64,000 nt of DNA from an uncultured Candidatus Saccharibacteria bacterium. Lineage in GTDB: Bacteria > Patescibacteriota > Minisyncoccia > Phycocordibacterales > PALSA-1337. The DNA lies in assembly GCA_964467225.1 (NCBI GenBank), contig CAYXPQ010000002.1, positions 7,901 to 71,900 on the forward strand. Reading direction: 5' to 3'. Both the position numbers and the translations under genes were made by a program. Positions 11,234-59,500 of this stretch are shown piece after piece. Below the pieces are notes generated by a model that saw only the letters and a program-made list of their open reading frames with translations, searched no databases and was not told the origin of the DNA. Each line of letters starts with the position of its first letter. Position 1 is the first letter of the stretch.

Positions 11234-12916
11234 CTATCTAAAATATTCAGGAGTGTTTACATTCATCCAATCCAATAACTCCCGCATTGCAGATCCAGCT
11301 CCAATGAGATTATGGACTGAACCTTTTTCTAAAAGAATAGCAAAGACATACTTGGGATTATCATATGGGAAATAGCCAGTCATCCATGAATTCACTTTTT
11401 CTTTTGTTATACCTAGTTCTGCAGTACCAGATTTTGTGGCAATTTTGACATATGGTAGATTTAATGATTGTCCCGTACCTTCTGTTACACCCATTCTCAT
11501 TCCCTCCTTTACAATTGCAAAATGCTCACTTGAAATATCAGCATAGCCATATATTGGACCAGGTACTCCTTTCACAATACTTGGATCTCTAATTAAACCA
11601 TTATTCACCACACCAGATAATGCCCTGACAACCTGTATTGGTGAAACTTGAAAACCATATTGACCTATTGAAGTATGGTATGTATTACCTAGAGTCCATG
11701 CTTCTCCCTTAAACTGGATCTTTTTCCATTCTGGAGACGGAATAACACCAGATAATCCAGTAAAGAAAGAATTTTCAATCTTACTTCCAAAACCAAACAT
11801 TTGCATATATTTATCAATTCTTGAGATTCCTAACCCCTTTTGGTCTTTATAGCCTCCACCAATTGCGTAGAAATAAACATCGGAGGAAACAGCTAATGCT
11901 TTTCTCATATCAGTATATCCATGTGCTTTCCAATCTCTAAAGATTGTTTTAAGATCTGGATAATATTGATTTTGAATTGAAATGGAACCTGTACTCAGTA
12001 TCTGTTTTTTAGGATCAATTATCTTTTCATTTAAAGCTGCCAAAGCCATAAAGGGTTTGGTAATAGATCCAGGAGTATATAAGCCATCCACAGCCCTATC
12101 TAGAAATGGCTTATCTTTACTGGTAAGATATTCTCTAACTTTTTTTACATCAGTTTTAGATGACATAATCTCTGAATCATACTCTGGATAACTTGTCATG
12201 GATATCACTTCACCAGTCCTAATATCCATCATTACACCAGCACCTCCTTCAAATCCTACTTTCTCTGAAATATCTTTCAGAGCCTTATACATTTCGGTTT
12301 GAATTCTCGAATCAATGGATAAATAAATATTCTGTCCTTCAACCGGTGGTAGTATAGTATTTTCTGATTGAACTTTACCTCTTGCATCAACCTCTATTAG
12401 TCTAGTTCCATTTTTGCCTTGCAATTCTTTGTTGAAATATTTCTCAACACCATCTACTCCCTCAAAGTCTTCTCTATAATAAAATCCAGCACTATCTTTA
12501 GATGGATATTGCACATAACCAACAACATGTGCTAATCCTAAATCTCCTTTATATCTTCTATTGGCAATTTCTGAATCCTCACTTGGTGAATTCCACGCCA
12601 GTTCTACTCCATTCCTATCATATATAACTCCTCTAGCAGCAAAGATTGGTATATGTCTTAATCTATTGTTTTCACTTCTATTTTTGTAAAGTTGACCGTT
12701 AGCTATTTGAAGATTCCAAATTTTAGTACCATAAACAATAAGAATAGCGACAAAAAAAGAGAATAGGATAACTAATGATAGTTTTGATATTGGCTTATCG
12801 AGCCGGCCCTCAAATTGTTGAATATCAAATTGTGGTAGATTCTGAGAGTCCAAAAATATTTCATCTGGATCAATTTCGTTATTAACTTTTTTTCTGGATT
12901 TAAGATTCATATACAA
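11234..12916 (-). CDS. mrdA: Penicillin-binding protein 2 (elongasome transpeptidase)
   Basis: 560 aa with an N-terminal TM, the motifs SITKPF and KSGTA, and a position directly downstream of mreBCD. Confidence 0.85.
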   Translation of the reverse strand: MYMNLKSRKKVNNEIDPDEIFLDSQNLPQFDIQQFEGRLDKPISKLSLVILFSFFVAILIVYGTKIWNLQIANGQLYKNRSENNRLRHIPIFAARGVIYDRNGVELAWNSPSEDSEIANRRYKGDLGLAHVVGYVQYPSKDSAGFYYREDFEGVDGVEKYFNKELQGKNGTRLIEVDARGKVQSENTILPPVEGQNIYLSIDSRIQTEMYKALKDISEKVGFEGGAGVMMDIRTGEVISMTSYPEYDSEIMSSKTDVKKVREYLTSKDKPFLDRAVDGLYTPGSITKPFMALAALNEKIIDPKKQILSTGSISIQNQYYPDLKTIFRDWKAHGYTDMRKALAVSSDVYFYAIGGGYKDQKGLGISRIDKYMQMFGFGSKIENSFFTGLSGVIPSPEWKKIQFKGEAWTLGNTYHTSIGQYGFQVSPIQVVRALSGVVNNGLIRDPSIVKGVPGPIYGYADISSEHFAIVKEGMRMGVTEGTGQSLNLPYVKIATKSGTAELGITKEKVNSWMTGYFPYDNPKYVFAILLEKGSVHNLIGAGSAMRELLDWMNVNTPEYFR

Positions 12917-21332: not shown

Positions 21333-21938
21333 CTACTGTGTCCGAGTCACCGAGTACGATCCATCAAAGTGGACCACAACACGATACTTCACAACAGCTG
21401 TACCGTTCGTGATGTAAATGGGAAAATTGATCTTCCCAATACTTTTTTCCTCAAGCTGAAGTGCCAAGGAGAAAACCGGCAAGTTATTTGGTCCTGTCGA
21501 GGTATTATAATATCCCGAAGGAAAAGTCAGAGTAACGATCACATCTCGGACGGTTCTATACGAAATTCCGTCCATGTAATCGGTCCCAAAGTACTTGAAA
21601 TAACAGAGGGTTTCCTTGACCTTTATCCAACTGATAGTCGGAAAATAGTAGTTGGGTACCTCGTACGAATATGATTCATACGGCAAGGTTTTTTTGACAT
21701 TTTCATGCTCAAGACCCCAAGAATTCAGGGTAATGTTTTTTCCATTTTCGGTGTACTGGATAATCGGTTCTGCCGTCTTTGCGGTGTAGAAAAGGGGTAA
21801 ATCATCCCCAGTGTACACCACCCCAGCAGTATCGAAATACCGAATCGTCAGATTCAGTCCGTAGGCGTAGCCAGAGACTGAACCAAACATGGCTATCATT
21901 GCCACCAATATCAAAACCAGCATCTTGATACTTTTCAT
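21333..21938 (-). CDS. Secreted hypothetical protein; GC-rich gene, probable horizontal acquisition
   Basis: 201 aa with a signal peptide (MKSIKMLVLILVAMIAMFGSVSGYA). The gene is visibly GC-richer than its neighbours and has a dedicated terminator. Confidence 0.45.
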   Translation of the reverse strand: MKSIKMLVLILVAMIAMFGSVSGYAYGLNLTIRYFDTAGVVYTGDDLPLFYTAKTAEPIIQYTENGKNITLNSWGLEHENVKKTLPYESYSYEVPNYYFPTISWIKVKETLCYFKYFGTDYMDGISYRTVRDVIVTLTFPSGYYNTSTGPNNLPVFSLALQLEEKSIGKINFPIYITNGTAVVKYRVVVHFDGSYSVTRTQ

Positions 21939-22219: not shown

Positions 22220-22594
22220 CTAAATGACGGCCTTGAGTTCGAAGACCACGACTCCAAGATCTTCGTAGCACCTGGAGTAAAGTTGTCTCAACCCACTAAG
22301 CACTTGCTCTGCAGTCCATCCAGGCATTATTCTTCCAGGATTTTCTACTTTAAGCATTGAATCGAAATTTTCATATTTTCTAACACCCACCACCCTACAC
22401 TTCACAGTATCAGAAAATATGATGTTATCCCCAACAGCCACCTCACTAAAAAATCTTTGAGAGGTTCTAACTTCTAAATCCTTTTGACCAGATACTATGA
22501 GAGGGATTACTCTCTCAAACATACGGAAATGGTGAGTTTTCAATTTGTTCTCCTTTCTATAATAGAGAATATTACTTACGATATCTAAAGTCAA
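22220..22594 (-). CDS. ASCH (PUA-like) domain protein
   Basis: 124 aa. A beta-barrel ASCH-like pattern is present (LIVSGQKDLEVR...), and the gene is tightly linked to the MGMT-like gene. Confidence 0.55.
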   Translation of the reverse strand: MTLDIVSNILYYRKENKLKTHHFRMFERVIPLIVSGQKDLEVRTSQRFFSEVAVGDNIIFSDTVKCRVVGVRKYENFDSMLKVENPGRIMPGWTAEQVLSGLRQLYSRCYEDLGVVVFELKAVI

Positions 22595-27561: not shown

Positions 27562-28449
27562 TTATATCATATTTTTCTCTGCTACAATAAATTCTTCAAT
27601 TTCACCATCCAAAACTTTCTCAACTTGGGAAGTTTCTACATTTGTTCTGTGGTCCTTCACCATTTTGTATGGATGAAAAACATATGAGCGAATTTGATTT
27701 CCCCATTCTATTGCAGTTGTCTTGCTAATATACATACCCTTTTCTTTAGCAATTCTTTCTTCCTCTATCTTTTTAAATAATTTACCCTTTAGAATATCCA
27801 TAGCTTTCTCCTTGTTCTGAACTTGAGATCTTTCTGATGTTACATGTACAGAAAGACCTGTAGGTTTGTGAACTATTCTTACTGCTGTCTCTCTTTTGTT
27901 CACATTTTGTCCTCCAGGGCCTCCTGACTTCGCAATTGAAATCTCCAAATCCTTCTCAGATAAATCTAGATCCGTGCTATTTGTCTTCTCAAACTTAGGA
28001 ATTACCTCAACCATGGAGAAGGAAGTATGGCGAAGTTGCTTGGCATTAAAGGGGGAAATTCTTACTAGACGATGAACTCCACTTTCATTCTTTAATATTC
28101 CATATACGCCCTTACCGACAAATTCTACTGTTATATTTCTGTAACCTCCATGATCATTATCATTACTGTGAATCAATTCCATTCCCCATCCATTCCTTTC
28201 TGCAAATTTTCTATACATTCTATATAGAATAGCTGAGAAATCTTCTGCATCATCCCCGCCTGCACCAGAGAAAATTGTCATGATCGCATTGCCTTTATCA
28301 AATTTACCTATACCTTCCAATGTGTCTTTGAGATCTTGAAGTTCCTTAATCATTGACTGAGCTTTATTGGGATTATTCCAAAAGTCAGGTGCCTGCATCG
28401 CTGATTCTATTTCTTCTATTCTTTTTTGGGTGTTTTGTTTTGAATCCAT
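27562..28449 (-). CDS. prfB: Peptide chain release factor 2 (short N-terminus, no +1 frameshift site)
   Basis: The SPF tripeptide (RISPFNAKQ) and GGQ motif (GGPGGQNVNK) are present. The track ORF starts at a TTG that overlaps tRNA-Thr, and the first ATG (MDSKQ...) gives 295 aa. Confidence 0.85.
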   Translation of the reverse strand: MDSKQNTQKRIEEIESAMQAPDFWNNPNKAQSMIKELQDLKDTLEGIGKFDKGNAIMTIFSGAGGDDAEDFSAILYRMYRKFAERNGWGMELIHSNDNDHGGYRNITVEFVGKGVYGILKNESGVHRLVRISPFNAKQLRHTSFSMVEVIPKFEKTNSTDLDLSEKDLEISIAKSGGPGGQNVNKRETAVRIVHKPTGLSVHVTSERSQVQNKEKAMDILKGKLFKKIEEERIAKEKGMYISKTTAIEWGNQIRSYVFHPYKMVKDHRTNVETSQVEKVLDGEIEEFIVAEKNMI

Positions 28450-28464
28450 GTTAATTATTCTGTG

Positions 28465-28535
28465 AGCCAAATGTGAGAATCGGACTCACGTTCCTACTTT
28501 ACGAAAGTAGTGTTCTGCCACTGAACTAATTTGGC
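28465..28535 (-). tRNA. tRNA-Thr (anticodon CGT)
   Basis: Cloverleaf with acceptor GCCAAAT/ATTTGGC, D-stem GTTC/GAAC, anticodon stem CTACT/AGTAG and loop TTCGTAA. No CCA. Confidence 0.85.
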
Positions 28536-28638: not shown

Positions 28639-30156
28639 ATGAACTCAAAAATAATTAAGCGTCCACCAATAGTAGTTATCATGGGTCACATCGACCATGG
28701 TAAATCTACCCTTCTAGACTATATAAGAAAGACAAATATAGTTGCTAGAGAAGCTGGGGGTATTACGCAACACTTAGGAGCATATGAAGTTATGCACATG
28801 ACAAATGAAGGCAAGCAGGGCAAAATAACTTTTTTAGATACCCCAGGTCATGAAGCTTTCTGTAGTATAAGAGAGAGAGGAGCACATTCAGCAGATGTTG
28901 CTGTATTAGTAGTGTCAGCAGAAGATGGAGTTAAACCACAGACTATAGAAGCATTAAAATGCATTATCACTGAGAAGATTCCTTATATTGTTGCAATAAA
29001 TAAAATTGATAGACCTAGCGCAAATATTGAACTTACAAAGCAGAGTTTAGCTGAGAATGAAATATATGTAGAAGGATATGGCGGTGACATACCTGTCGTC
29101 CATATTTCTGCTCTTAATGGAGAAGGGGTTCCTGAGCTATTGGATATGATTCTCTTGGTTACAGATCTACAAGATCTAAAGGCTAATACAGAAGTTAATG
29201 CAGAAGGATCAATTATAGAAGCAAAAAGAGATAGTAAGAAAGGCATCTCCGCAACACTCTTAATCAAAAATGGCACAATCAAAAGTGGAATGTATGTAGT
29301 AGTGGAGAATGCTATATCACCAGTAAGAATTTTGGAGGATTATCAAGGTAAATCTATCAAATCCGCAACTTTCTCAAGTCCAGTTAGAGTAATTGGTTTT
29401 GACAAAATACCTAGAGTTGGTGCGAATTTTATTACCTGTAATAATAAAAAAGACGCTGAAGAGATAGCTAATCAATTCAAAAACAATACAAAAGCAAAAG
29501 TAACTCAGTCAATCAAAAAGGATGACAATGACACAACAGTAATAATACCTATCATTATAAAAGCAGATGTAATAGGAAGTCTTGAAGGAATAAAATATGA
29601 ATTAGCTAAAATTAAAAACGATAAAGTTAAAATCAAAATAGTTTCAGAAAGTATTGGAGATATAAATGAGAATGATGTAAAAACAGCACAAAGTGATCCT
29701 AATATCATTATTCTCAGCTTCAATACAAAAGCCGATTCAAAAGCTAGTGGCATCATAGAAAGAAATAATATTCAGGTAAAAACATTTGATATTATCTACA
29801 ATCTAATAACTTATCTTAAAGATATTGTTACTTCAAAAATTCCAAAAGAATACATTGATGAAGTATCTGGTCTAGCAAAAATACTTGCAGTATTTAGTAA
29901 AAATAAAGACAAACAAATATTAGGAGGTAAAGTTCAATCTGGAAGCTTGGTAGTAGGATCAGAAGTTAAAATCTTAAGAAGAGATAGTGAAATCGGCCGA
30001 GGCAAAATAAAAGAGCTTCAACAACAAAAAGTCAAAACTGATGAGGTTAGAGAAGGTTATGAATTTGGCTGTATGATAGAGTCAAAAACCGAAATAGCTG
30101 AAGGTGATAAAGTCCAAGGTTTCATCACAATCGAAAAGATAAATTCAATTAAATAA
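28639..30156 (+). CDS. infB: Translation initiation factor IF-2 (short form, G-domain at N-terminus)
   Basis: 505 aa with G1 GHIDHGKST, DTPGHEAF and NKID, followed by beta-barrel domains. Confidence 0.9.
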   Translation: MNSKIIKRPPIVVIMGHIDHGKSTLLDYIRKTNIVAREAGGITQHLGAYEVMHMTNEGKQGKITFLDTPGHEAFCSIRERGAHSADVAVLVVSAEDGVKPQTIEALKCIITEKIPYIVAINKIDRPSANIELTKQSLAENEIYVEGYGGDIPVVHISALNGEGVPELLDMILLVTDLQDLKANTEVNAEGSIIEAKRDSKKGISATLLIKNGTIKSGMYVVVENAISPVRILEDYQGKSIKSATFSSPVRVIGFDKIPRVGANFITCNNKKDAEEIANQFKNNTKAKVTQSIKKDDNDTTVIIPIIIKADVIGSLEGIKYELAKIKNDKVKIKIVSESIGDINENDVKTAQSDPNIIILSFNTKADSKASGIIERNNIQVKTFDIIYNLITYLKDIVTSKIPKEYIDEVSGLAKILAVFSKNKDKQILGGKVQSGSLVVGSEVKILRRDSEIGRGKIKELQQQKVKTDEVREGYEFGCMIESKTEIAEGDKVQGFITIEKINSIK

Positions 30157-30504: not shown

Positions 30505-30578
30505 GGCGTAGTGGCGAAGTTGGTCAACGCGACAGTCTGCAAAACTGTTATGCACCGGTTCGATCCCGGTCTACGCCT
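30505..30578 (+). tRNA. tRNA-Cys (anticodon GCA)
   Basis: Cloverleaf with acceptor GGCGTAG/CTACGCC, anticodon stem ACAGT/ACTGT, loop CTGCAAA and T-arm ACCGG-TTCGATC-CCGGT. Confidence 0.85.
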
Positions 30579-30587
30579 CAATATTAT

Positions 30588-30896
30588 TTATTCCCTGTGC
30601 AAACTCTTGAATACTGAACCAATAATAAAGAACACTAGTGACAATCCAATAATTACAATAGCTGCACCTTGTTGATAATCAGTGACTTTTAAATTGTCTG
30701 TAAAATAACCAACCACAGTAACAAAAACAGTTAGTAAAATAAATACAGAAAAAGTAGATTTAAAGGGGTACCTACTAACTTTAGTAGAATCATCTAATTT
30801 AAACATTGGATCAGGTTTTATAGCTCCTTCCTTTTCTAAGACAGTTATTTTCTCTTTAACTGATTTTGCTAATAAGTCCTCGCGTATATTTTGCAT
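30588..30896 (-). CDS. Hypothetical small membrane protein
   Basis: 102 aa with two TM helices, embedded in the tRNA cluster. Confidence 0.4.
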   Translation of the reverse strand: MQNIREDLLAKSVKEKITVLEKEGAIKPDPMFKLDDSTKVSRYPFKSTFSVFILLTVFVTVVGYFTDNLKVTDYQQGAAIVIIGLSLVFFIIGSVFKSLHRE

Positions 30897-30963
30897 ACTA
30901 TAATTCTAACATATAATATATTTTGATTATCAACAGCAAAAATGTTAGACTACATTTAGAAAT

Positions 30964-31045
30964 GCCCGAGTGGTGGAACTGGTATACACGCACGACTTAA
31001 AATCGTGTCCTTTACAGGATGTGGGTTCGATTCCCACCTCGGGCA
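30964..31045 (+). tRNA. tRNA-Leu (anticodon TAA)
   Basis: Class II tRNA with a long variable arm, anticodon stem CACGA/TCGTG, loop CTTAAAA and acceptor GCCCGAG/CTCGGGC. Confidence 0.85.
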
Positions 31046-31117
31046 CAGACATCATACAATTGCTAAATAACTATATTTCTGTTATATTTTTTATACAAAA
31101 TATAATAAATACAGTAT

Positions 31118-31190
31118 GCGTCCATAGCTCAGCTGGTAGAGCAGATCCCTCTTAAGGATAAGGTCGTAGGTTCGATCCCTACTGGACGCA
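31118..31190 (+). tRNA. tRNA-Lys (anticodon CTT)
   Basis: Cloverleaf with acceptor GCGTCCA/TGGACGC, D-stem GCTC/GAGC, anticodon loop CTCTTAA and T-arm GTAGG-TTCGATC-CCTAC. Confidence 0.8.
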
Positions 31191-31209
31191 CCCGTTATAT
31201 AACGGAAAT

Positions 31210-31291
31210 GCCGGGGTGGCGAAATTGGCAGACGCACTTGCCTTAGGAGCAAGCGGGGTAACCCATGGAGGTTCAAGTCCTCTCTCCGGCA
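31210..31291 (+). tRNA. tRNA-Leu (anticodon TAG)
   Basis: Class II tRNA with acceptor GCCGGGG/CTCCGGC, anticodon stem CTTGC/GCAAG, loop CTTAGGA and a long variable arm. Confidence 0.85.
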
Positions 31292-31453
31292 CTAGATTAT
31301 TACTATAATAAATATAGCAGCAATATGTGCCTTATTAACCATTGACTTTCATGGTCATTTATGATACATATCTAATGTAGATTTCCTTTACCAGATGTGA
31401 TGAACATTGGTTGAAAGGAAACGAAACTTTGACAACTAGTAGAAAGACATGTT

Positions 31454-32266
31454 ATGGCAAACCCAACAAATCCGCCTGGACCGACACCGAATCCGACACC
31501 AACTCCAGCGCCTGCTCCACAGCCTGCGCCGAATCCGACACCTGCTCCACAACCCCCAAGGAGAATCTCGAGAACTCTGCCTAGTTTGACTCAATTCTGG
31601 AACAAACATTACATGAAATTTTGGGGGGTGTTAGGGGTTTTCCTTGTACTGGTTTTTTTTGTTTCTGTATTTCTTATCATCGACCCTGTGGGAAGATATC
31701 AGAACTATAAGAAACAGCATACCGAAGAGGATTCGAAATCCCAAACTTCACCCAACACAAGCGATTTGGTAACAGTTCCGATAACCAACACCTCTCCCGA
31801 TTCGATCGTACTAGACAGCAACAGCAGAGAAGGTGTGTCTGTTAGTCACTCGACTAACGGCAATGCCATAAAAGTTGTGGGCAACAAAGATTCCCGAGTA
31901 ATAATCAGCATCGGGAGTGACAACCCCACGATTGCTCAATCTCGAAACCCCCTACTCAACCCGGACAGGGTGATCAAGCTCGATGCCTTGAGAGACGGGA
32001 AAATTGAAGCCATTACTGGCTTTTACTACATCACGAATACGGTAAATGCCCTGGAAAACGTTTTGTTCCAGATACCGACGGGATGGGCTATGCAAGCCTC
32101 TACTCTTCCATATCCACCAGGGATGGTGAAGGCGTTAGATGAGCGAGGAAATCCGCTTAATGGTAAGTTGGTAAGTGGAGGTTGCATGTTGGTTCAGAAT
32201 TGCAGTTCCACAATCGATGTAGAACTAAGATGGGAGTGTATGATAATTGCCACAAGTGGCAAGTAA
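31454..32266 (+). CDS. Membrane-anchored protein with Pro-rich N-terminal low-complexity tail (GC-rich island gene 1)
   Basis: 270 aa with a PTPNPTPTPAPAPQPAPNPTPAPQPP tract, one TM, and an extracytoplasmic domain ending in a Cys cluster. The gene is GC-rich. Confidence 0.5.
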   Translation: MANPTNPPGPTPNPTPTPAPAPQPAPNPTPAPQPPRRISRTLPSLTQFWNKHYMKFWGVLGVFLVLVFFVSVFLIIDPVGRYQNYKKQHTEEDSKSQTSPNTSDLVTVPITNTSPDSIVLDSNSREGVSVSHSTNGNAIKVVGNKDSRVIISIGSDNPTIAQSRNPLLNPDRVIKLDALRDGKIEAITGFYYITNTVNALENVLFQIPTGWAMQASTLPYPPGMVKALDERGNPLNGKLVSGGCMLVQNCSSTIDVELRWECMIIATSGK

Positions 32267-32425
32267 CTTCCATCACTCAAAGGGGCGTCACGCAAGTGGC
32301 GCCCTTACTTTTTATATTTAATCATTTATCAATTTATAATGATTTTTCATCATTGACTTACATCAAAAATCATGCTATTATACTAAGTAGACTTTAGTGA
32401 CTTATCCAAGTCTCCTCTACACTTT

Positions 32426-33418
32426 GTGTATTGGGAAATGAGGAAAAGTTTTGACAATCACTGGAAAGAGAGAATGAAAAATAATGACATTTCATACCTA
32501 GGAGCATTCCTTAGGTTCATCCTACTTGGAGGTATTGTGTCGGTAGTCATCTGGTTGATTCTCGGAACAAACACCAAGAATACCCTGTTCATAGGGTTCT
32601 TGGTATGGGGATCACTGTACTTCTTTGTTTTGTTTGATCGCTTTTGGATTAACCCAGACGCAAACACCCAGGTCATACTACAAAATTATTTCCAAAAACC
32701 CAGTAACGGTGGTTATGGAAATATGGTAGACGATCTTGAAATACCAAAAGGACAAAGAGTGGTGGGTACCGGCTGGTCACCAAAGAGGTTCTTTGAGTAT
32801 CCAGTTGGAAATCCAATAGCTACCAAGAATGAGGAAGTTAGAAAACCGATTGAAATCAGGGATAAAAATAACATACCGTTTTCTATTACTCTTCGATTCT
32901 TCTTGAGACCAATCAAAGGTCACTATCTGGCTCGATATCCTTTAATACCAGATGATGTAGCGAAAGACTACTTTACTGGGAGATTCACACAATACATGGA
33001 AGGTGTATTGGCTGACAAAGACGGGGACAAAGATGTCATCAACAAACTTGAAGATGCCAAGAGTGACTTTGCATTAGGTCTTGAGGCAATCTTCGGTGGT
33101 TCAAATACCATTAGTGATGATGAAAAAAGGTATGCAAGAACCGTTCATGACATTGCAATTGTTGAGATTGCAAAAGGAAAAACCGCTCAAGCTGCAGCAC
33201 AAGTCGAGGTGATGGCTCAACAACTGGCCACCGCAACGGAAACTCTTATTAGGAAGGGGGTAGATCCGAGCATAGCAGCTTCCATATCAGCAGCATTAGC
33301 TGAAACTAATGCTGATATAAGGATATTTGGCATCAGTGGTGCAGAACATCTCACACACCTTGGACTCGGTGCTGACACTGATAAATCCAAAGGTCAGAAG
33401 GGAGGCAAATCAAAATGA
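32426..33418 (+). CDS. Membrane protein with SPFH/band-7-like domain and Ala/Gln-rich coiled coil (GC-rich island gene 2)
   Basis: 330 aa with two N-terminal TM helices, a mixed alpha/beta domain, and a C-terminal AKGKTAQAAAQVEVMAQQLATATE coiled coil with a Lys-rich tail. Confidence 0.45.
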   Translation: MYWEMRKSFDNHWKERMKNNDISYLGAFLRFILLGGIVSVVIWLILGTNTKNTLFIGFLVWGSLYFFVLFDRFWINPDANTQVILQNYFQKPSNGGYGNMVDDLEIPKGQRVVGTGWSPKRFFEYPVGNPIATKNEEVRKPIEIRDKNNIPFSITLRFFLRPIKGHYLARYPLIPDDVAKDYFTGRFTQYMEGVLADKDGDKDVINKLEDAKSDFALGLEAIFGGSNTISDDEKRYARTVHDIAIVEIAKGKTAQAAAQVEVMAQQLATATETLIRKGVDPSIAASISAALAETNADIRIFGISGAEHLTHLGLGADTDKSKGQKGGKSK

Positions 33419-33786
33419 ATACTAAGAAATTAGGAAAATGGCTTGGTGCCGCATTCCTACTACTGATGTGGATGCTTTACAGATCTAGCACGTGGTCAAA
33501 TACTGAGAAATCAGATCAAGCCACCACCTTCACCACCCCCATCACCCCCAGCGAATGGACCTGCATACCCACCAAAGGTAAAGACCTCCATTTCTCAATC
33601 ACCCCAACCAATGGGGTGAAACTCAAATACACCGTTGTACTCGACGGCAATATGAGCAACAAGTTTGTCTTTCCAGGGACAAACATACCGCCACACTTGT
33701 ACTATGGTGTGACAAATCTCTGGGTCAAGCTTAATAGTGGACAGATCCATAATGTTGGATACTTGTCCTACTATTGGACTGACTAG
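33415..33786 (+). CDS. Small secreted protein (GC-rich island gene 3)
   Basis: 123 aa with a signal peptide (MNTKKLGKWLGAAFLLLMWMLYRSSTWS). It overlaps the previous gene by 4 nt. Confidence 0.45.
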   Translation: MNTKKLGKWLGAAFLLLMWMLYRSSTWSNTEKSDQATTFTTPITPSEWTCIPTKGKDLHFSITPTNGVKLKYTVVLDGNMSNKFVFPGTNIPPHLYYGVTNLWVKLNSGQIHNVGYLSYYWTD

Positions 33787-33793
33787 AGACCAA

Positions 33794-33830
33794 GAGACCT
33801 GCACGCGAGCGTGCAGGTCTCCTTTCTTTT
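33794..33830. terminator. Strong GC-rich bidirectional terminator at the island/pilin-array boundary
   Basis: Perfect 12-bp stem GAGACCTGCACG-CGAG-CGTGCAGGTCTC followed by CTTTCTTTT. Confidence 0.6.
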
Positions 33831-33852
33831 AAATTTTTTAGTAATTCAGTAA

Positions 33853-34152
33853 CTAGAATGGTAATACTTCGGGCTGTCCAACTGTATTAGCGACAAATCT
33901 TATTATTCCATATACAGACACCATAATGAATATTCCCACTACTCCCCATAATATATGATTCTTGGATTGATTCCTTCTATCTTCATCTCCCCTGAAGAAT
34001 CCATACAATCCCCATATAAATACTAGAATTGTGACCCCAAATAAAACTTGAATTACAGGCATAACAATATTATCTACAATTTTTGGTACTATAGCATTAA
34101 GAGCCGCATCTGCATTTGAGGCACCATAAACAATTGTAAATAATGGAAACAT
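33853..34152 (-). CDS. Small two-TM pilin-like protein, paralog 1 (VirB2/TrbC-like architecture)
   Basis: 99 aa with two hydrophobic helices separated by the charged loop RGDEDRRNQSK. It is similar to the four upstream paralogs. Confidence 0.5.
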   Translation of the reverse strand: MFPLFTIVYGASNADAALNAIVPKIVDNIVMPVIQVLFGVTILVFIWGLYGFFRGDEDRRNQSKNHILWGVVGIFIMVSVYGIIRFVANTVGQPEVLPF

Positions 34153-34158
34153 ATAAAC

Positions 34159-34530
34159 TTATCTACTTACATTAGTATTTGGATCTATTGTCTTTGGGAA
34201 AAATTGAGTTGGAACTGTATCATCTGTTCTAAATGATCTCTTAAGTATATTTACAAGACCCCAAATAGATAGAATAACAAATAATCCAATAACACCATAT
34301 AATATAGCACGTCCACCTTCTTTTCTTTGATCTTCACCACCTGCGATCAAATACCTTACAACATTCACAACAATCCAAATAACAGAGAATGAAATAAGGA
34401 GAATTATTATTGTATCGCCGATCGTTGTTGCCTTTCGAGTTACATCATCAAGATTATTTATTTGACCAGTAACTTGAGCAAAAACTGATACAGGCACGAG
34501 AGAAATCAAAAACGCAATGAATTTTTTCAT
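34159..34530 (-). CDS. Small secreted two-TM pilin-like protein, paralog 2
   Basis: 123 aa: signal peptide, TM1, loop IAGGEDQRKEGGR, then TM2 ending WGLVNIL. Confidence 0.5.
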   Translation of the reverse strand: MKKFIAFLISLVPVSVFAQVTGQINNLDDVTRKATTIGDTIIILLISFSVIWIVVNVVRYLIAGGEDQRKEGGRAILYGVIGLFVILSIWGLVNILKRSFRTDDTVPTQFFPKTIDPNTNVSR

Positions 34531-34626
34531 AATTAATTATTTAATAATAAACTTCTAATACAGTCCATATTGTAACATTTAGATACCCATTTACAAACTT
34601 ATCTGTGGAAAGAAAGAATAGTGATA

Positions 34627-35181
34627 TTACATATCTCTATTACTATCATAATCAGTATTTGATCCAGAACCAGGATTTGAAACACCACCAAGATTTGTCG
34701 AGCCACCAGTATTAGATACTCCACCCAAATTTGTGGATCCACCTGTATTTGAAACACCACCAAGATTTGTTCTAGAACCTCCTCCTGAATTAAAGATAGG
34801 ATTTGAACTACTATTGTTACTAGATCTAAAACTTCCAAATATAGTATTAGGTGGCAAGTTATTATCTAACTTGAAGCTATTCATCAATATATTTACCAAA
34901 CCCCAAAAAGAAAGCATAACAAAGAAACCTATCACACTCCACATTACATATAGTCCAGCCTCTTTCTTTGCAGTTACATCATCACTACCAGAAATAAAAT
35001 ATTTGTAAACATTGTATACAAACATGAGTACAGCTAATGAAAGTATAAGATATATTGCAATTTGTATATAATCAGTTATTACTCCTGCCAAACCCCTTAA
35101 ATCTTTAGTTTGTTGAGCATAAGATAGGAATGGTATAAAAAATAATGAAGTTATAATTGTTTTTAATTTAAAATTTTTCAT
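34627..35181 (-). CDS. Small secreted two-TM pilin-like protein, paralog 3, with a C-terminal Gly/Ser/Asn repeat tail
   Basis: 184 aa: signal peptide, TM1, loop ISGSDDVTAKKEAG, TM2 ending WGLVNIL, then 3x GGVSNTGGSTNL. Confidence 0.5.
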   Translation of the reverse strand: MKNFKLKTIITSLFFIPFLSYAQQTKDLRGLAGVITDYIQIAIYLILSLAVLMFVYNVYKYFISGSDDVTAKKEAGLYVMWSVIGFFVMLSFWGLVNILMNSFKLDNNLPPNTIFGSFRSSNNSSSNPIFNSGGGSRTNLGGVSNTGGSTNLGGVSNTGGSTNLGGVSNPGSGSNTDYDSNRDM

Positions 35182-35186
35182 ATTTA

Positions 35187-35645
35187 TTATTTTATTGGAC
35201 TATTAAGAATACCCTCTTTCACCACTCCAGCTTGCTTCAAAGTATTTTGTACTATAGTAACGATTACCTTGGAACTTATCAGTACTGCTAATCCTATTAT
35301 TATATATGTAAATTTCTTTTTTGCATCTTCTATCTCTTTTGGATTTCCTTGAGCCAAGACGAATTTGAAACCTGTGAATATAATTGCAAATACTGCATAT
35401 AGTATTCCTATATAAATTAGTATGTCTATGCCTAAATAAATAACTTCTTCAACGCTATCAACCTTTAGAGGGTTCTGAAGCTTCACTAACTGCTGAACTG
35501 GTGTTGTTTTATTTGGATCAGGTTTACCACTAACCGAACCATCAGACACCTTTCCACTGACACTTCCATCGGACTGTGCTAGAACAATATTGGATGCAGA
35601 TAATAATAATATTGTTATTAAAAAAATTTTAATTAATTTATTCAT
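35187..35645 (-). CDS. Small secreted two-TM pilin-like protein, paralog 4, with an N-terminal SDGSVSGK repeat
   Basis: 152 aa: signal peptide, 2x SDGSVSGK, TM1, loop AQGNPKEIEDAKKK, TM2. Confidence 0.5.
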   Translation of the reverse strand: MNKLIKIFLITILLLSASNIVLAQSDGSVSGKVSDGSVSGKPDPNKTTPVQQLVKLQNPLKVDSVEEVIYLGIDILIYIGILYAVFAIIFTGFKFVLAQGNPKEIEDAKKKFTYIIIGLAVLISSKVIVTIVQNTLKQAGVVKEGILNSPIK

Positions 35646-35646
35646 A

Positions 35647-36072
35647 TTATTTTAAATTAGACAGTGTATCTATTCCAGTAAAATTAGGATTCTTTATCCA
35701 ATCTACCAATGTTGTAACAATAAACCATGCTGTCAATGCAATTATAAAACCTATAATTGCATTTTTCATTATCTCTCGAGACCTCTTCAGATCTGTCTCG
35801 GAACCACTAATATGCAGATAACCTGCGTATGCGAACATTCCGGCTACTACTGGAAGTGAAAGTGTAAATGCCCAATTTATCAGTTGATTTATTATTACTA
35901 TAAGATTATAGAAATTACATGATATATTCCTATCTGGTTCAACTAGTTCATTAACCACTCCATCGCATTTTACTAATCCACTATAATCAAGTGAGGCTCC
36001 AACACCCTGAGCCGAAGAGTCATTTGGTATTAGAACTAGTGATAATAGAAATATTAATAATAACTTTTTCAT
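35647..36072 (-). CDS. Small secreted two-TM pilin-like protein, paralog 5
   Basis: 141 aa: signal peptide, mature region with 2 Cys, TM1 (VVAGMFAYAGYL), loop ISGSETDLKRSRE, TM2. Confidence 0.5.
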   Translation of the reverse strand: MKKLLLIFLLSLVLIPNDSSAQGVGASLDYSGLVKCDGVVNELVEPDRNISCNFYNLIVIINQLINWAFTLSLPVVAGMFAYAGYLHISGSETDLKRSREIMKNAIIGFIIALTAWFIVTTLVDWIKNPNFTGIDTLSNLK

Positions 36073-37379
36073 ATATTATTTAAAACAATATCATATTCAT
36101 CACTACCATCCTGCAACGCTTGCAATGAATTCTTCCTTCCACTTGTTACTGATTCAACAATATTCTTAAATAATTTTGTCGATTCATTCTTATTAGTGTC
36201 TAACCATCCCTTGGAGATAACTGCTGAATCGTAGAATATAGATAAATATGGATCTGTAGTTCCAGAAATAATCAGGTCAATTTTGACTGGTGGTAAATAT
36301 GCTAAATCTATCATCTCTTGAAGTGCATCACTGGATATCAGTGAAGAAAGTACAGTAAATGCAGATGCAGGATCTGCTGAACTCCTAACAATAGAAAATC
36401 CATACATAGCTCCATATGTAGCACGGTTCTGTGCACCTCGAGCTTGAGGGATAGGTGCAATATCGAAGTTTAAATTTGGATTTTTATTTCTCAAATCAGA
36501 AATCTCGGAAGCAAAACCAAAATATGTTGCAAGATTACCAGACAAAAAGGAACTCTTAGAATTTGCTATAGAACGATTCCAAGAATAATTAGGATCAGTT
36601 GGATTTGAGAATTGAGTAAAGAAATCCAATGCAGGTTTTGAAGTCTTAGTACCATCAAATCCTCTACTACCTAGTGAGCTGGCTAATGAAATTGGAGCAT
36701 TAGTATCAAAATTTGTCTTATATGTTATAGGATTACCTGCTTGAAGAAATAGTGTACCTAGTATTTCTCTAGCATGAGAAATATTTGTAAATTCACCCAT
36801 AGCTATGGCACTCTTTCTTACATTTGAATTTACATCTTTGATTGTTAACTTATTATTTAGATTTGTAAATTCATCCCAATATTTAGGGTAAGTTGGTATA
36901 CCTGCATTAATAAATGTATCCCTATTCCAATACATTACCATAGGGTCAATTACGAAAGGCAAAGCCAGTGTACCTCCTGACACAAGATACAATTCTGCTT
37001 GCGATATAAAACTACTTTTAAAATCTCTTTCTGTAAGAGCTGTTGGTGGAATCAGAGTAATCTTGTCTACATATCTAGATATTAAATCTTGAGACACCAA
37101 TATCGCATCTGGTCCTTGTCCTCGTGCCAAAGCCTCTATAAATGTTTTGTCAAAATTTAATTCTGATATTTCTGTATAATTTATTTTTAATTGTATTGCT
37201 CTTGTTGAATTAATTCTGCCAACATAATCATTAAAAACCCTAGCTGGAAATGTCCCCCATACAGCTATTGTGGGCAATTCAGTCTTCTGGCTTGCCCCTT
37301 TATAGGTGGCAAATAATGCCACACCAATGATTGCAAAAACTACAAATATTGCTGTTAAAATTGCTTGAAATTTACTCAT
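36069..37379 (-). CDS. Membrane-anchored extracellular solute-binding protein (SBP family 1, MalE-like); orphan, no permease adjacent
   Basis: 436 aa with an N-terminal TM anchor and SBP_bac_1-like motifs (GQGPDAILV, MYWNRDTF). Confidence 0.65.
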   Translation of the reverse strand: MSKFQAILTAIFVVFAIIGVALFATYKGASQKTELPTIAVWGTFPARVFNDYVGRINSTRAIQLKINYTEISELNFDKTFIEALARGQGPDAILVSQDLISRYVDKITLIPPTALTERDFKSSFISQAELYLVSGGTLALPFVIDPMVMYWNRDTFINAGIPTYPKYWDEFTNLNNKLTIKDVNSNVRKSAIAMGEFTNISHAREILGTLFLQAGNPITYKTNFDTNAPISLASSLGSRGFDGTKTSKPALDFFTQFSNPTDPNYSWNRSIANSKSSFLSGNLATYFGFASEISDLRNKNPNLNFDIAPIPQARGAQNRATYGAMYGFSIVRSSADPASAFTVLSSLISSDALQEMIDLAYLPPVKIDLIISGTTDPYLSIFYDSAVISKGWLDTNKNESTKLFKNIVESVTSGRKNSLQALQDGSDEYDIVLNNI

Positions 37380-37927
37380 GGTTTTTTAAATATAATTCCA
37401 TAATGATGGTCGCCTGCATCAAAACTTTTTTCTAATTCCATTCCAACCTTTTGGAAAATACCTTCAGCCAACAAGCGCGGAACTAAAGTCTTAGGACTTA
37501 GTGTGGTACCTTGAGCCCAATCGATCACCATTAATTTGCCACCGGATTTTAAAAGTCTTTTGATCTCAAGAGCTAAATTTTCCCTATCAGCAGATTCAAC
37601 TTGAAACAATGTATTGGAAAGTATTACTCGATCAGCAATAGATTCTCTTAATTTTGTCCCACCAATTTTTTCTATATTTCCCCAAACAACTTCCACATTA
37701 TGCAGACCCATGAGGCCCGCAGATGTCTTGATTTTAGATAGTAAATCTTGCTGAACATCTACTGCATATACCATTCCACGAGGTCCGACTTTCTTGGCAG
37801 ATTCAATAACATAAAAACCTGACCCTGCACCAAGATCAACAACCCTCATGCCATCTGTAATACCACATTCAGCAATATTTTTTTGCGGATCAGAAAACAT
37901 AGGTATATTATACCCTTTTATAGACAA
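37376..37927 (-). CDS. Class I SAM-dependent methyltransferase
   Basis: 183 aa with motif [12 protein letters not shown] and an acidic post-I residue in AVDV. Confidence 0.7.
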
Positions 37928-40549: not shown

Positions 40550-41053
40550 ATGCTTTGGGTAATTATTACAGCCATATTCACTTCCTTCTTTGCTGGAATT
40601 CTGTCGGTTTTTTCCTGCAGGACTTTTGAGAAGCGAGCTGCGGGCTTAAGGATTTTCTTTGTATCAGGATTCACTCTGGTAGCAGTTCTTCTTACATGTA
40701 AAGTCTGTTACGATAGAAGTTTTGAGGAAGGCGCTATAACGCGTGAAGGAATTTCAATTCCGGCCGCGCTTCGCCCTGAGCTTGAAGGTAAGGTTATCAC
40801 ACCGTTGGGTGTAGTCTGTCACGGTGAAGTGATATTTGTAATCGCAAATGACAAGTTATACACATTGCTTGGCACCGTCCTAGAGAAAGATCTCACCCCC
40901 ACCAACATGGTCGGTAGAAAATTAATCTTCTACCAGAAAGGTAAAGTCACTCACATCGGTGTCGTGCAACCTGAAGCACAGGCAGTCCCCACCCAAATCG
41001 GCTATACGAACACGAATGAGCATTATCAAAATGCTCTACCGAAGGTGAAATAA
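40550..41053 (+). CDS. GC-rich small membrane protein A (2 N-terminal TM helices plus soluble C-terminal domain)
   Basis: 167 aa. The gene is GC-rich, preceded by the outer repeat and an RBS, and followed by the inner-repeat terminator. Confidence 0.45.
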   Translation: MLWVIITAIFTSFFAGILSVFSCRTFEKRAAGLRIFFVSGFTLVAVLLTCKVCYDRSFEEGAITREGISIPAALRPELEGKVITPLGVVCHGEVIFVIANDKLYTLLGTVLEKDLTPTNMVGRKLIFYQKGKVTHIGVVQPEAQAVPTQIGYTNTNEHYQNALPKVK

Positions 41054-44229: not shown

Positions 44230-44538
44230 TCACCCTCTGTTCACTTCATCGACTGGAGAAGGTTTGGTAGTACAATAATGCTTTTCAGCAAGCTCATATC
44301 CTTCTATCTTTCCATCCTGCTTCCCTCTTGCGTATCCACCATTAAATCCCAAAATCCTCGCCTTCATGTGAATACACTCTGCATAAACATACAAAAGCAG
44401 TAATAAGACTGGGGATTTAACATTGGCACTCAGTGTGCAAAAATAACTTGAAATACAAAACAAAATAATTACCAGCCACATTGTTAATGCACACTTACCC
44501 CAAAAATTCGCAGAGCGAGATTGCAGAAACTTTGTCAT
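44230..44538 (-). CDS. GC-rich small membrane protein B (distant paralog of protein A)
   Basis: 102 aa. The internal MWLVIILFCISSYF resembles MLWVIITAIFTSFF of protein A. It is flanked by the same leader and terminator repeats as gene A. Confidence 0.45.
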   Translation of the reverse strand: MTKFLQSRSANFWGKCALTMWLVIILFCISSYFCTLSANVKSPVLLLLLYVYAECIHMKARILGFNGGYARGKQDGKIEGYELAEKHYCTTKPSPVDEVNRG

Positions 44539-56537: not shown

Positions 56538-59500
56538 CTAAATTATCTGCTTAACTCCACTAAGTATGCGCACTGGGATCTGTTTGATGAATTCAGCAAT
56601 TTTATTTAATATTCCTTTGATATATTGAACAAACACATCATTATATGATAAGGGATCAAAATTAAAGTATTCGGAATCATCATTGAATATATAGTCAGTC
56701 ATTTTATCTGGAGTAGGATTAGTAGATTTTATGTTTTTAGTTGAAACACCAGTCGGATTATTTGTCGAAGTATTCTTTACTGGAGTTACTTTTATATTTA
56801 CTTGTTTGACTGTTGGTACAATAGTACCGAGACCAGCCTTTATTGGTGTATAAACAATATTTGGTGCAATATTTGGAACATAATTTGCCCCTCCTTCTAT
56901 TACTTCGTACACAGAGAATCCATCGACGTTAAATACTAATGTTTTATTTATGAATGAAATAATACTACAAGTTGTACATGGAGTTCCGTCCTTCAAGATC
57001 TTAGGTTTTATTACATTTACATTGTACATAGTAATAATGGCTCTCTTATTTAATTGTGGTAGATTTTTAGAATTTAGTGAGACCTTATTTTGTGAGAATA
57101 CAAGATTAGAATCAATATCTAATTGATTAATAATTGATGAATCATCGTTATATAATTTTGTTGGTTGTCTAAAATTAATTTTTCCAAGTGTGCTTTTGCC
57201 AATTATGAAGTCCGGATAATATGATAGATCTTGATCGAAATTTGGCTTTATATCAAAATTATCGACTTTTGGCTTTGGACATCCATATTTATTAACTACC
57301 GATCTTAATGATGCAGAAGTATTCTGACACATATCAGAAGAATCCATAACTCCATCTAAATCTGTGTCGACAGTAATTAATATTCTTGTAGTAAATGTAT
57401 TATCTGTTGAAACAGAAACATTGCCAGATGCATCCTTAGTTATTACTCTATAGTGGTACAAAGTATTTGGATTCAATCCTGAAATTGATATTGAATGAGA
57501 ATTTACAAGAGTTTGACTAAATGAAGTACTATTGCCATAAGAATCAGTCAAACCATATTCTATCTGAGCATATGTTGGCTCATTAGTCTGGAATGTAATT
57601 GTTGTTTCTCCAGCAGTTACAGAAGGTGCAGCAACATTATTTATTATTGGAGGAATACTATCTATTTCGACAATTACATTAGCAATTGTAACGTTTACTG
57701 GATTAGATATTGCGGTATTACCATTTATATCTGTAGCTTGAGCAGTTAATATATGATTACCATTTGTAACTCCTACAGTATTCCATGCACCAGAATATGG
57801 AGGTTGAGTAAATAAACCTCCAAAATTCACACCGTCCAATTTAAATTGAACACTTTGTACTGCTATATTATCAGTAGCAATAGCCAGAATTGGAACAGAA
57901 TCTTTTATAATAGAATCATTTGTTGGTGAAGAAATAGAAATAGTGGGAGGAGTTGTATCAGCCGCGATAATATTGAAAGAACATGAAGCATTTGTACCAC
58001 CATTTGACTCAACACAAGACCAAAGATTTTGAGTTGCAGAATCTGGCAAATCAGAGAATGCTCCAGAGACACATTGGTTAAGAATCGCTGAGCATTGTCC
58101 AGTAACAACAATAGGGGTTGGAGGCGGATCTTCAGGTAGTGTTGGTGCTGAATAATTTACAGCACTATTCTTTATTGCTGTTCTAGTAGTTGTATTACCT
58201 ATGAATTCTGTAAACCAATAATAAGTTTTACCAGAATTTAATTTATACCGATTATATATTTCACTATATGTTAAAGCTTTTTTGTACATCACAAACTCAT
58301 CAATAAAACCGTTAAATGAAGCCCCGGAGCCAGAATATCCCAGTACAAATAGATTGTTGTTGTCAGACTTTGTAAATGCAGGAATTTGGCATGCAGGAGC
58401 TGGAGTAAGTCTTGGTGTAGGACAATTTGTGTCTTTCGTACCTCCAAGATTTCCATTTACATTCTTACCATCTAGATATATGTCCATTTTTCTTAATTCT
58501 TGCTGAAAACCAGAACCATCAAATACAAAGACTAGGTGATGATAGGTGTTATCTGCTGGGAATTTAATATTGCTATATCTTTCTCTAGTAATTGTTCCAT
58601 CAGAGACTTGAAATATTATCTCCCTACCTGTCTCACGTATTCTAGCTGCATAAGGTGAGAAATCTAATGAGAAACTACTAACATCGCCCTTTGAAAATAG
58701 TCGAGAAGAACCATTCAAAGATGGGGATTTGAGCCACATCTCAATAGTGAATTGATTTAAGTTATTTAAACTTAAATCATTTGGAATTCTAATGCTCTTT
58801 GAATTAGTTGTACCATCAGATTTTAATCCGCCAGCAAATTTTCCATATGAATCTCCATACTCAAGTGTTCCAGCAACTGTGTTTACCAAAGTGGCATTTC
58901 TAGCATAAGAGCTGAAATCCTTTACACTAGTTGTAGTCTCAGCCATCTCTGCTCTTTTGTCAAAATGATACAACATTAAGGTATTTGAATCAGAAGTACG
59001 AATAGGAGCATCCCACGGATAAGTTATTGTACTTCCATTTGCCACATCTTGAGCAAACAATAGATCATTAATTCCAGGTGATGGATTTTCACTTCCAAAA
59101 ACTCTTACTCTCATAGGGTTTTTGTCACCATTTACTGCTTCACTAATTAGTATACTGTCATTACTTGCAACAGTGCCAAATTGGAAGAAAGTTTTATTAA
59201 CTAAATTGGGATCATATGTATTTACTGTAATATAAACTGGGTTATTATTGAGAGTATAGCTAAATCTTTGTCCTGAAGAATAATTACCCAATACCTTACC
59301 AAACATATCATAAATTGTAATTGCTGCAGGTAATGAGTTATTCTCTATTACAACTGTCTTGCCGGGTACATCTGTCCACGCAACCATCACACTATTATTT
59401 GTATCCTTAATGAACTGCATCATTACAATACTCTCGTCATCCACAAAATCGCCTTTAGCAACATAACCTTTAAATTTAATATTCGCACCATCAAGAAAAT

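Follow-up and report, generated by a model that had tools for sequence, protein, structure and literature searches.

A conserved three-gene membrane module with a predicted SPFH protein, exchanged between strains and set beside VirB2-like pilin genes in a clade of Patescibacteria

How does a block of three GC-rich genes come to lie beside a tRNA cluster in an otherwise AT-rich genome? We addressed this question on a 64,000-nucleotide (nt) stretch of contig CAYXPQ010000002.1 from an ultrasmall, uncultured Candidatus Saccharibacteria bacterium, hereafter called the window. Positions 30505-31292 of its plus strand carry tRNA-Cys(GCA) (30505-30579), tRNA-Leu(TAA) (30964-31046), tRNA-Lys(CTT) (31117-31193) and tRNA-Leu(TAG) (31210-31292), followed on the same strand by three genes: g1 (31454-32266), g2 (32474-33418) and g3 (33415-33786), coding for 270, 314 and 123 amino acids (aa), respectively. 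Facing them on the minus strand is an array of five VirB2-like pilin genes of a type IV secretion system (T4SS) (33853-36072; PF18895, Pfam E-values 1e-10 to 3e-7). An initial annotation had read the block as an island inserted beside the tRNAs. ARAGORN, Rfam and the open reading frames (ORFs) agreed with its order of tRNAs and genes, and the block does lie opposite to mostly minus-strand surroundings, but the plus-strand stretch starts already at IF-2 (28639) and includes RbfA and the tRNAs. The related loci lead to another answer concerning its origin. The block is a three-gene envelope module, ancestral and fixed in position, of one clade of Patescibacteria (also termed CPR, for candidate phyla radiation), not a tRNA insertion, and we are confident in describing it as a conserved SPFH module whose alleles are exchanged, rather than as an island.

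The position of the module was conserved wherever it could be followed. Only 5 relatives of g2 were present among 5.8 billion protein clusters, and every contig coding for one of them carried the same three genes, convergent with a PF18895 pilin array. We recovered the module in the related loci L001-L008. In L003, a near-identical strain whose pilin gene 1 is 96% identical, the gene order is that of the window (IF-2, RbfA, a 102-aa ORF, four tRNAs, g1, g2, g3, pilin gene). When the neighbouring solute-binding protein (SBP) was used as the query, with one genome per species, nine CPR genome bins were matched, five of which span the site. The order in L013-L017 is GyrA, class I methyltransferase (MT), SBP, five pilins, a slot of 2.5-3.7 kb, tRNA-Leu(TAG), tRNA-Lys, tRNA-Leu(TAA), tRNA-Cys, RbfA and IF-2, and the four tRNAs are the conserved left border of the slot, which L003, L015, L016 and L017 have as well. 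A tblastn search with g1-g3 on the slots of these distant loci gave no match. Their slot ORFs are of three types: a long protein with one transmembrane (TM) segment and a C-terminal domain; a protein of 290-405 aa with N-terminal TM helices and a Gly/Lys/Asn-rich tail; and a protein of 109-156 aa with an N-terminal anchor. The equivalence of these genes to g1, g2 and g3 was judged by architecture and by profile searches. L014 holds one extra GC-rich ORF between the module and the tRNAs (11341-11937, minus strand; 198 aa, G+C content at third codon positions (GC3) 0.68, no Pfam family), and the gene content of the slot is therefore not strictly fixed.

With an exhaustive profile search, the g2 family grew to 76 representative clusters. 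The members sampled (E-values 1e-52 to 1e-5) share the same context, except that the contig of P0053, at 1.8 kb, is too short to show it, and the module was also found in L018, L020, L022, L024 and L025. The core of g2, g3, pilin, SBP and MT genes is kept despite changed outer flanks: P0037 has NusB and RNase III upstream and Ddl and UvrC downstream, and L024 has an upstream IS66 transposase. Wherever a locus reaches far enough, g2-g3 is convergent with three to five PF18895 genes. All told, 15 of the 15 related loci covering the site, with relatives down to 48% SBP identity, hold a three-gene module of the same architecture, and none of them shows an empty site. Within the 64 kb, neither the 26-nt nor the 15-nt 3' end of tRNA-Leu(TAG) has a second copy, even with two to three mismatches, and no direct repeat brackets the block. 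In the part of the window ORFs covered by the scans, PrfB, IF-2, RbfA, pilins, SBP, MT and GyrA neighbour the block, and neither an integrase nor a recombinase was found at its border. These negative results agree with the initial annotation, which had likewise seen neither an integrase nor a repeated tRNA 3' end. Of the island hallmarks, the block displays a deviant composition; integrase, att repeat and empty site were not found. Because a homologous or architecture-equivalent block with a GC excess occupies the same site in all related loci recovered, we conclude that it is not an island. The initial annotation had itself named such a block, with similar GC at the same site in relatives, as the observation that would speak against its reading. 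Many metagenomic contigs (L001, L004, L006, L007 and L009-L012) break at or just outside the module, on the tRNA-Leu(TAG) side or within the pilin array, which fits strain-level variation or repeats confounding assembly.

The coding sequences of the module diverge far faster than their flanks. Between the window and L004, identity was 91% for MT, 76% for SBP and 57-92% for the pilins, compared to 31% for g1, 50% for g2 and 31% for g3. The ratio of nonsynonymous to synonymous substitution rates (dN/dS) was 0.28-0.45 for g1, 0.09-0.18 for g2 and 0.07-0.23 for g3, versus 0.02-0.14 for the flanks. Whole alleles have been replaced between near-identical strains, and much of the divergence is replacement rather than change in place. 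Nucleotide identity between the window and L003 was 90-100% through the tRNAs (to ~31300), ~45-65% across the g1 coding sequence and 91-95% from ~32366 onwards; BLAST placed the g1 breakpoints at 31434 and 32366, and a second dip in identity covers 33200-33650. The synonymous divergence of g1 is saturated (2.87, versus 0.2-0.8 in the flanks). L016 and L017 have SBPs that are 92% identical and g2 proteins that yield no pairwise match, and across loci the identities of SBP and g2 were only loosely related (Spearman 0.22, p = 0.10). Furthermore, the N-terminal tail of g1 comes in two types, type A (Pro-rich, ~50 aa) in the window and L006 and type B (~108 aa) in L003 and L004. The flanks pair the window with L003 and L004 with L006, and the tail types cut across this pairing. 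Conservation is higher in the noncoding linkers than in the genes on either side of them. Between the window and L007, the g1-g2 intergenic region is 83% identical, compared to 63% for g2 and 75% for pilin gene 1, and the sequence of the g1 terminator hairpin is nearly identical; the region between g3 and the pilin gene is 92% identical in the window and L003. Of the lateral transfer that had been proposed for this block, the insertion of an island is not supported, and what stands is an exchange of module alleles between strains, especially those of g1.

We then turned to the base composition, which had been described as far above background and proved to be so. The G+C content of the block (0.435) is the highest of all 2333-nt sliding segments in the window; 25 nonoverlapping background segments gave a mean of 0.333, a standard deviation of 0.016 and a maximum of 0.358, which places the block at z = 6.5, and its GC3 excess amounts to +0.23. 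The GC3 values of g1, g2 and g3 are 0.47, 0.37 and 0.56, compared to 0.245 ± 0.063 for the 62 other ORFs, and the block as a whole has a GC3 of 0.439, where 0.224 is expected from its amino acids and the background synonymous usage. C-ending codons are increased 2.7-fold and G-ending codons 1.5-fold. Among the two-fold pyrimidine-ending codons, NNC reaches 0.40-0.53 in the block, compared to 0.12-0.33 elsewhere. Four-fold families shift to both C and G (CCG 0.29 versus 0.06, GGG 0.20 versus 0.05, CTG 0.14 versus 0.04), and the codons for Lys, Glu and Gln do not shift. We rejected strand bias as the source, as IF-2 and RbfA lie on the same strand with a GC3 of 0.21. Over the 15 loci, module GC3 was 0.41-0.51, with the exception of L016 and L017 (0.61-0.64), and the excess disappears only in L024 and L025, where the genome itself reaches 0.50. 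Since module GC3 stays roughly constant while flank GC3 varies from 0.21 to 0.50, the composition of the module is uncoupled from that of the resident genome. That the excess is common to the relatives argues against a recent import.

The signals around the genes point to two transcription units, g1 alone and g2-g3, each with a near-consensus sigma-70 promoter, a hairpin leader and a strong terminator. Promoter and leader together span 31342-31453 for g1 and 32353-32473 for g2. The putative g1 promoter consists of TTGACT (31342-31347), a 17-nt spacer and TACATA; that of g2 (32353-32381) reads TTGACT-17-TATTAT with a TG. Both fit TTGACT-N17-TAnnAT, usually with an upstream TG. The leaders of g1 (31365-31453) and g2 (32388-32473) are homologous over ~85 nt. 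In both leaders, the 5' arm of a predicted hairpin is rich in pyrimidines and the 3' arm in purines, and CTTTGACAA follows ~20 nt before the start codon. In g1, the hairpin is UUUCCUUUACC...GGUUGAAAGGAAA and CTTTGACAA lies at 31427-31435; the g2 leader carries TTTTGACAA at 32449-32457. Besides the hairpin, the leaders contain a TTTGACAA motif. A leader model, R1, matched the g1 leader (31365-31451, E-value 2e-20, a training sequence) and the g2 leader (32392-32473, E-value 1e-18), and recovered the untrained g2 leaders of L004 and L006 (E-values 4e-7 and 5e-8). It found no further copy in the window, and the leader of ORF 21333-21938, which looks similar, was not matched. YTTTGAMAR occurs 15 times in the window where 15.5 are expected; it is thus not enriched, and only its positions are informative. 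Rfam has no family at the twin leaders, which are better conserved than the coding sequences. Since support from RNAalifold was weak, we describe the leaders as homologous in sequence and claim no defined RNA fold. The predicted g1 terminator (32281-32306) has an 11-bp stem and a T-run. The GC hairpin that had been noted at the end of the block is present at 33794-33821, between the convergent g3 and pilin gene 1, and has 12 pairs, 8 of them G-C, and a T-rich tail.

What, then, keeps these genes GC-rich? Rapid evolution in place should follow the AT-biased mutation pressure and thus does not explain the excess. The remaining causes are recombination-linked, namely, a shared allele pool or GC-biased gene conversion, or consist in selection on codon usage. 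Recombination would be our favoured explanation. In the alternative that survives best, g1-g3 would be transcribed independently and at very high levels, and selection acting on their codon usage or on properties of their mRNAs would account for the GC3 excess, with no part played by exchange or a foreign origin. The near-consensus promoters, 5' hairpin leaders and strong terminators of g1 and g2 are in its favor, as are the rise in C-ending codons above all others, the unshifted Lys, Glu and Gln codons and the ATTGACTT promoters upstream of other GC3-rich ORFs (21333-21938, 40550-41053 and 22220-22594). However, four-fold families shift to G as well as to C, and genes expected to be highly expressed have an ordinary GC3 (pilins 0.17-0.24, rpoC fragment 0.20, sigma-70 0.23, IF-2 0.21). 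Moreover, selection of this kind leaves the sharp recombination breakpoints and the incongruent alleles unexplained, and we regard it as distinctly unlikely.

The window contains a few more GC3-rich ORFs: 21333-21938 (minus strand, 0.52), 40550-41053 (plus strand, 0.44), 22220-22594 (minus strand, 0.38) and 44230-44538 (minus strand, 0.36). The third has an ASCH domain; the other three have no Pfam family and start with N-terminal hydrophobic segments. A ATTGACTT-type promoter precedes each of the first three, and a strong hairpin terminator closes ORF 40550-41053. The number of ATTGACTT sites in the window is not enriched (7 versus 5.5 expected) and only their positions are informative, with five of the seven standing upstream of GC-enriched genes. 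Like g1-g3, these ORFs may be envelope genes of one class, each transcribed independently and deviating in composition.

Concerning the protein products, g2 is best described as a predicted divergent SPFH protein of the prohibitin/stomatin/HflK-like kind. Band_7 was matched by three of its five close relatives and by 11 of 59 family members (best E-value 6e-16), and the family profile matched prohibitin 1 in the PDB (E-value 2e-5). The AlphaFold2 (AF2) model, a monomer with a mean predicted local distance difference test (pLDDT) score of 85.7, shows two hydrophobic N-terminal helices (2-42 and 46-69), an α/β SPFH domain, a long helix at 248-272 and a disordered Gly/Lys tail. In Foldseek searches of the PDB, the top 48 matches at E ≤ 1e-3 were all SPFH-fold proteins, including prohibitin (PHB1/2), HflK/C, stomatin, QmcA, flotillin, erlin and major vault protein, with best E-values of 6e-9 to 1e-5. 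The two TM segments, band-7-like domain, coiled coil and Lys-rich tail of the initial annotation are thus in line with these models and profiles. The positional g2 proteins of the distant loci match the family profile or, weakly, Band_7. In every member inspected the number of TM helices is even, and some have long Lys-rich N termini without signal peptides, from which it follows that the SPFH domain is probably cytoplasmic and g2 anchored by a two-helix membrane hairpin. Candidate start codons are 32426 (GTG, longest ORF), 32438 and 32474. The ATG at 32474 is the most likely one because the upstream "codons" coincide with the conserved leader, the N-terminal "RKSFDN" of the long ORF calls being leader that was translated; the 314-aa relative P0001 starts there too. 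Gene callers thus render part of the g2 leader as a false N terminus. An exact look-up of the 330-aa g2 ORF found no match, presumably because the real start lies further downstream, and g3 was used as the query instead. g2 and g3 overlap by 4 nt (ATGA), which is consistent with translational coupling.

In contrast to g2, which has SPFH as its only family, g1 and g3 belong to no known family in Pfam, NCBIfam or PHROG. TM scans and alignments divide g1 into a Pro-rich N-terminal tail (residues 1-51), a TM segment (58-76) and a hypervariable C-terminal domain of ~190 aa; the tail, the single TM segment and the Cys residues of the C-terminal domain had all been noted before. The tail is probably cytoplasmic. 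The g1 equivalent in L017 begins with a lipoprotein-like signal, which suggests that the C-terminal domain is extracellular. g3 had rightly been described as small with an N-terminal hydrophobic anchor; its AF2 model (pLDDT 78.5, from nine sequences) shows an anchor helix and a seven-strand β-sandwich, for which Foldseek found no significant match in the PDB (best E-value 9e-3, to cupin, nucleoplasmin and GOLD folds). The 11 positional homologues of g3 have no Pfam family either. From this predicted topology, g1 and g3 would both be membrane anchored, with their C-terminal domains outside the cell.

The pilin array is the constant right-hand neighbour of the module. SBP_bac_1 (36069-37379) and the MT gene (37376-37927), both on the minus strand, overlap head to tail with the array and gyrA, and all of these are co-oriented. 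We therefore asked whether the module could be considered a T4SS accessory. It is linked to T4SS genes, including in two loci with differing outer flanks, but none of g1, g2 and g3 has homology to a described T4SS protein family in Pfam, NCBIfam or PHROG. There was no virB4 among the window ORFs scanned against Pfam. Within the array, tandem repeats of 18 nt (6 aa, GGVSNTGGSTNL-type) occur in the C-terminal tail of the third pilin (34651-34770 in particular). VirB2-like pilin arrays are documented in CPR bacteria (10.1101/2025.01.22.634366), and pilin subunit genes in a T4SS cluster are essential in Candidatus Southlakia epibionticum, a Saccharibacterium (PMC10633639); in these two papers, a text search found no mention of SPFH, band 7, flotillin or prohibitin proteins beside pilin arrays. 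Natural competence has been reported in Saccharibacteria (PMC10187176).

Overall, we consider it fairly probable that the block is an envelope module with an SPFH protein as its scaffold, exchanged by recombination and possibly serving the pilin array. The g2 protein could form an oligomeric SPFH cage on the cytoplasmic face, which would corral g1, by way of its variable tail in the cytoplasm, together with g3 and possibly a membrane pool of VirB2-like pilins. Host cells or phages would exert diversifying selection on the exposed domains of g1 and g3. Homologous recombination would bring in new alleles, its arms being the tRNA cluster, the pilin gene and the conserved linkers. The composition of the module would stay uncoupled from a genome drifting toward AT either through this exchange or because GC-biased gene conversion acts at a hot spot of recombination. 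The scaffold function and the cause of the GC excess, taken jointly, are put forward tentatively and with considerable doubt. We also entertain, as a speculation that is unlikely to hold in all its parts, that the slot is a clade-wide cassette-exchange locus in which the linkers (tRNAs, twin leaders and terminators) act as homology arms, competent CPR cells swap deeply diverged alleles of g1, as a surface specificity protein, and of g2-g3, as its SPFH scaffold and partner, the proteins work with the VirB2-like pilus in setting host or phage engagement, and GC-biased gene conversion keeps the locus GC-rich.

Several points weigh against this reading. The function of the module is predicted from sequence and structure alone. 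The g2 of the window itself matches no Pfam family at E ≤ 1, falling below every threshold, and its assignment comes from the family profile and the predicted structure. The topology of the proteins is based only on hydrophobicity and a weak charge asymmetry. The link to the pilins is one of gene neighbourhood within a single clade of generally conserved synteny, with changed outer flanks in two contexts only. The fold of the leader RNA is weakly supported by covariation (RNAalifold -0.84 kcal/mol; single-sequence z-scores of -0.2 to -3.1). With regard to composition, the modules of L016 and L017 exceed their own genomes too, so that a simple shared-pool average is insufficient, and a codon shift that peaks at C-ending codons and spares Lys, Glu and Gln could reflect selection on codon usage.

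The function also admits other explanations. The module could be an anti-phage or exclusion system, in which a membrane SPFH protein is paired with variable partners that serve as sensors or receptors. Such a module would evolve and pass between strains in the manner of defence-island genes, its adjacency to the pilins being incidental. Rapid divergence, allele replacement between close strains, a variable slot next to tRNAs and three products that are all predicted to be membrane anchored, with the g1 and g3 domains probably exposed, would agree with this. On the other hand, PADLOC-DB 2.0 returned zero matches at E ≤ 1 for g1, g2 and g3, there was no PHROG match at a meaningful E-value, and no nuclease, ATPase or other effector domain was found in the module proteins. 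Unlike patchy defence systems, moreover, the module is present in every relative recovered. A defence function is thus even less probable than codon selection as an explanation of what we observed.

Weaker again is the possibility that the block is a classical SPFH-NfeD quality-control operon, or one of the HflK/C-FtsH type, that has diverged beyond recognition, with g3 or g1 as the NfeD-like partner. SPFH-NfeD gene pairs often overlap by ATGA, as g2 and g3 do, g2 is a predicted SPFH protein, and QmcA-YbbJ is among its structural matches. We nevertheless rejected g3 as an NfeD protein: PF01957 was found in none of 11 g3 and 11 g1 positional homologues, even at permissive E-values, and the β-sandwich of the g3 model has no NfeD or OB match in the PDB. 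In addition, the predictions place the g3 domain outside the cell and the SPFH domain in the cytoplasm, and no protease gene is adjacent. Least probable of all, and very unlikely, is a horizontally acquired island beside tRNA-Leu that lost its mobility genes and owes its GC to a foreign donor: the strong GC excess, the adjacent tRNA cluster, the tiny g2 family and the orphan g1 and g3 would fit, but a recent event of this kind is largely refuted by the module at the same site in every related locus, by the missing att repeat and integrase, by the lack of relatives in phage, plasmid and IMG/VR collections and by a GC excess in every AT-rich relative, which recent acquisition with amelioration does not predict, and a single ancient acquisition in the ancestor of the clade would not account for the present composition.

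Other features of the window deserve mention. Between tRNA-Cys and tRNA-Leu(TAA) lies a minus-strand ORF of 102 aa with hydrophobic stretches (30588-30896). It is kept in L003 (94% aa identity, dN/dS 0.06) and missing from L015, in which 4 nt separate the two tRNAs; L016 and L017 have tRNA-Leu(TAA) in inverted orientation. IF-2 (28639-30156, plus strand) is short, with 505 aa and no long N-terminal region. The RF2-like gene (27562-28470, minus strand) has a TTG start in its longest ORF, and the end of this ORF falls 7 nt inside tRNA-Thr(CGT) (28464-28535). Farther away, a protein of 2050 aa (56538-62690, minus strand) with LamG, PKD, Big_7 and fn3 domains and a GH10-like segment is a giant surface protein, typical for episymbiotic CPR bacteria.

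Little is known about how CPR bacteria recognise and hold their hosts, and VirB2-like arrays are among the few envelope features shown to be essential in a cultivated member (PMC10633639). The module is a concrete candidate for a determinant of host or phage specificity in an uncultivated episymbiont lineage and for an organiser of pilin assembly, because it is a constant neighbour of the array, evolves fast, is exchanged and combines a predicted SPFH scaffold with variable proteins that are probably exposed. It is also a clean case from nature of a locus that, without being a recent import, has a base composition uncoupled from that of its genome, and one on which GC-biased gene conversion in reduced genomes could be tested. 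It cautions that GC deviation and tRNA adjacency do not prove an island.

Finally, we compared the block to known systems. It resembles tRNA-linked genomic islands and integrative elements in its tRNA adjacency, deviant GC and orphan genes, but differs from them in that neither an integrase nor an att repeat was found and that relatives do not vary in whether they carry it. Capsule/O-antigen and pilin variation loci are allele-replacement loci for surface structures with conserved flanking genes. The block shares with them conserved flanks and linkers, deeply diverged alleles in close strains and mosaic breakpoints, whereas its products are a predicted SPFH scaffold and two small membrane proteins instead of glycan enzymes or pilins, and silent donor copies were not seen in the window. 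The five PF18895 genes at 33853-36072 represent a VirB2-like array as described for Patescibacteria; compared to the described arrays, this one is co-oriented with gyrA, MT and SBP and has the module as its constant neighbour. An analogy for g2 and the pilins is provided by the Staphylococcus aureus flotillin FloA, which scaffolds the type VII secretion system (PMC5718613), in that an SPFH protein is proposed to help assemble a secretion or pilus apparatus. In S. aureus, however, the link is experimental and the genes are unlinked, whereas here it is only a conserved gene neighbourhood. The closest comparison is with prokaryotic SPFH/band-7 operons (QmcA-YbbJ, FloA/FloT with NfeD, HflK/C-FtsH). 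With these, g2 shares the predicted fold, the N-terminal anchor and the C-terminal coiled-coil helix, and g2-g3 the gene for a small membrane protein in a 4-nt overlap. It differs from them in that g2 is very divergent and has a two-helix hairpin anchor, that its partners are neither NfeD nor a protease, and that the module is hypervariable and exchanged between strains. The block is thus a very divergent SPFH operon with noncanonical partners and an unusual population behaviour.

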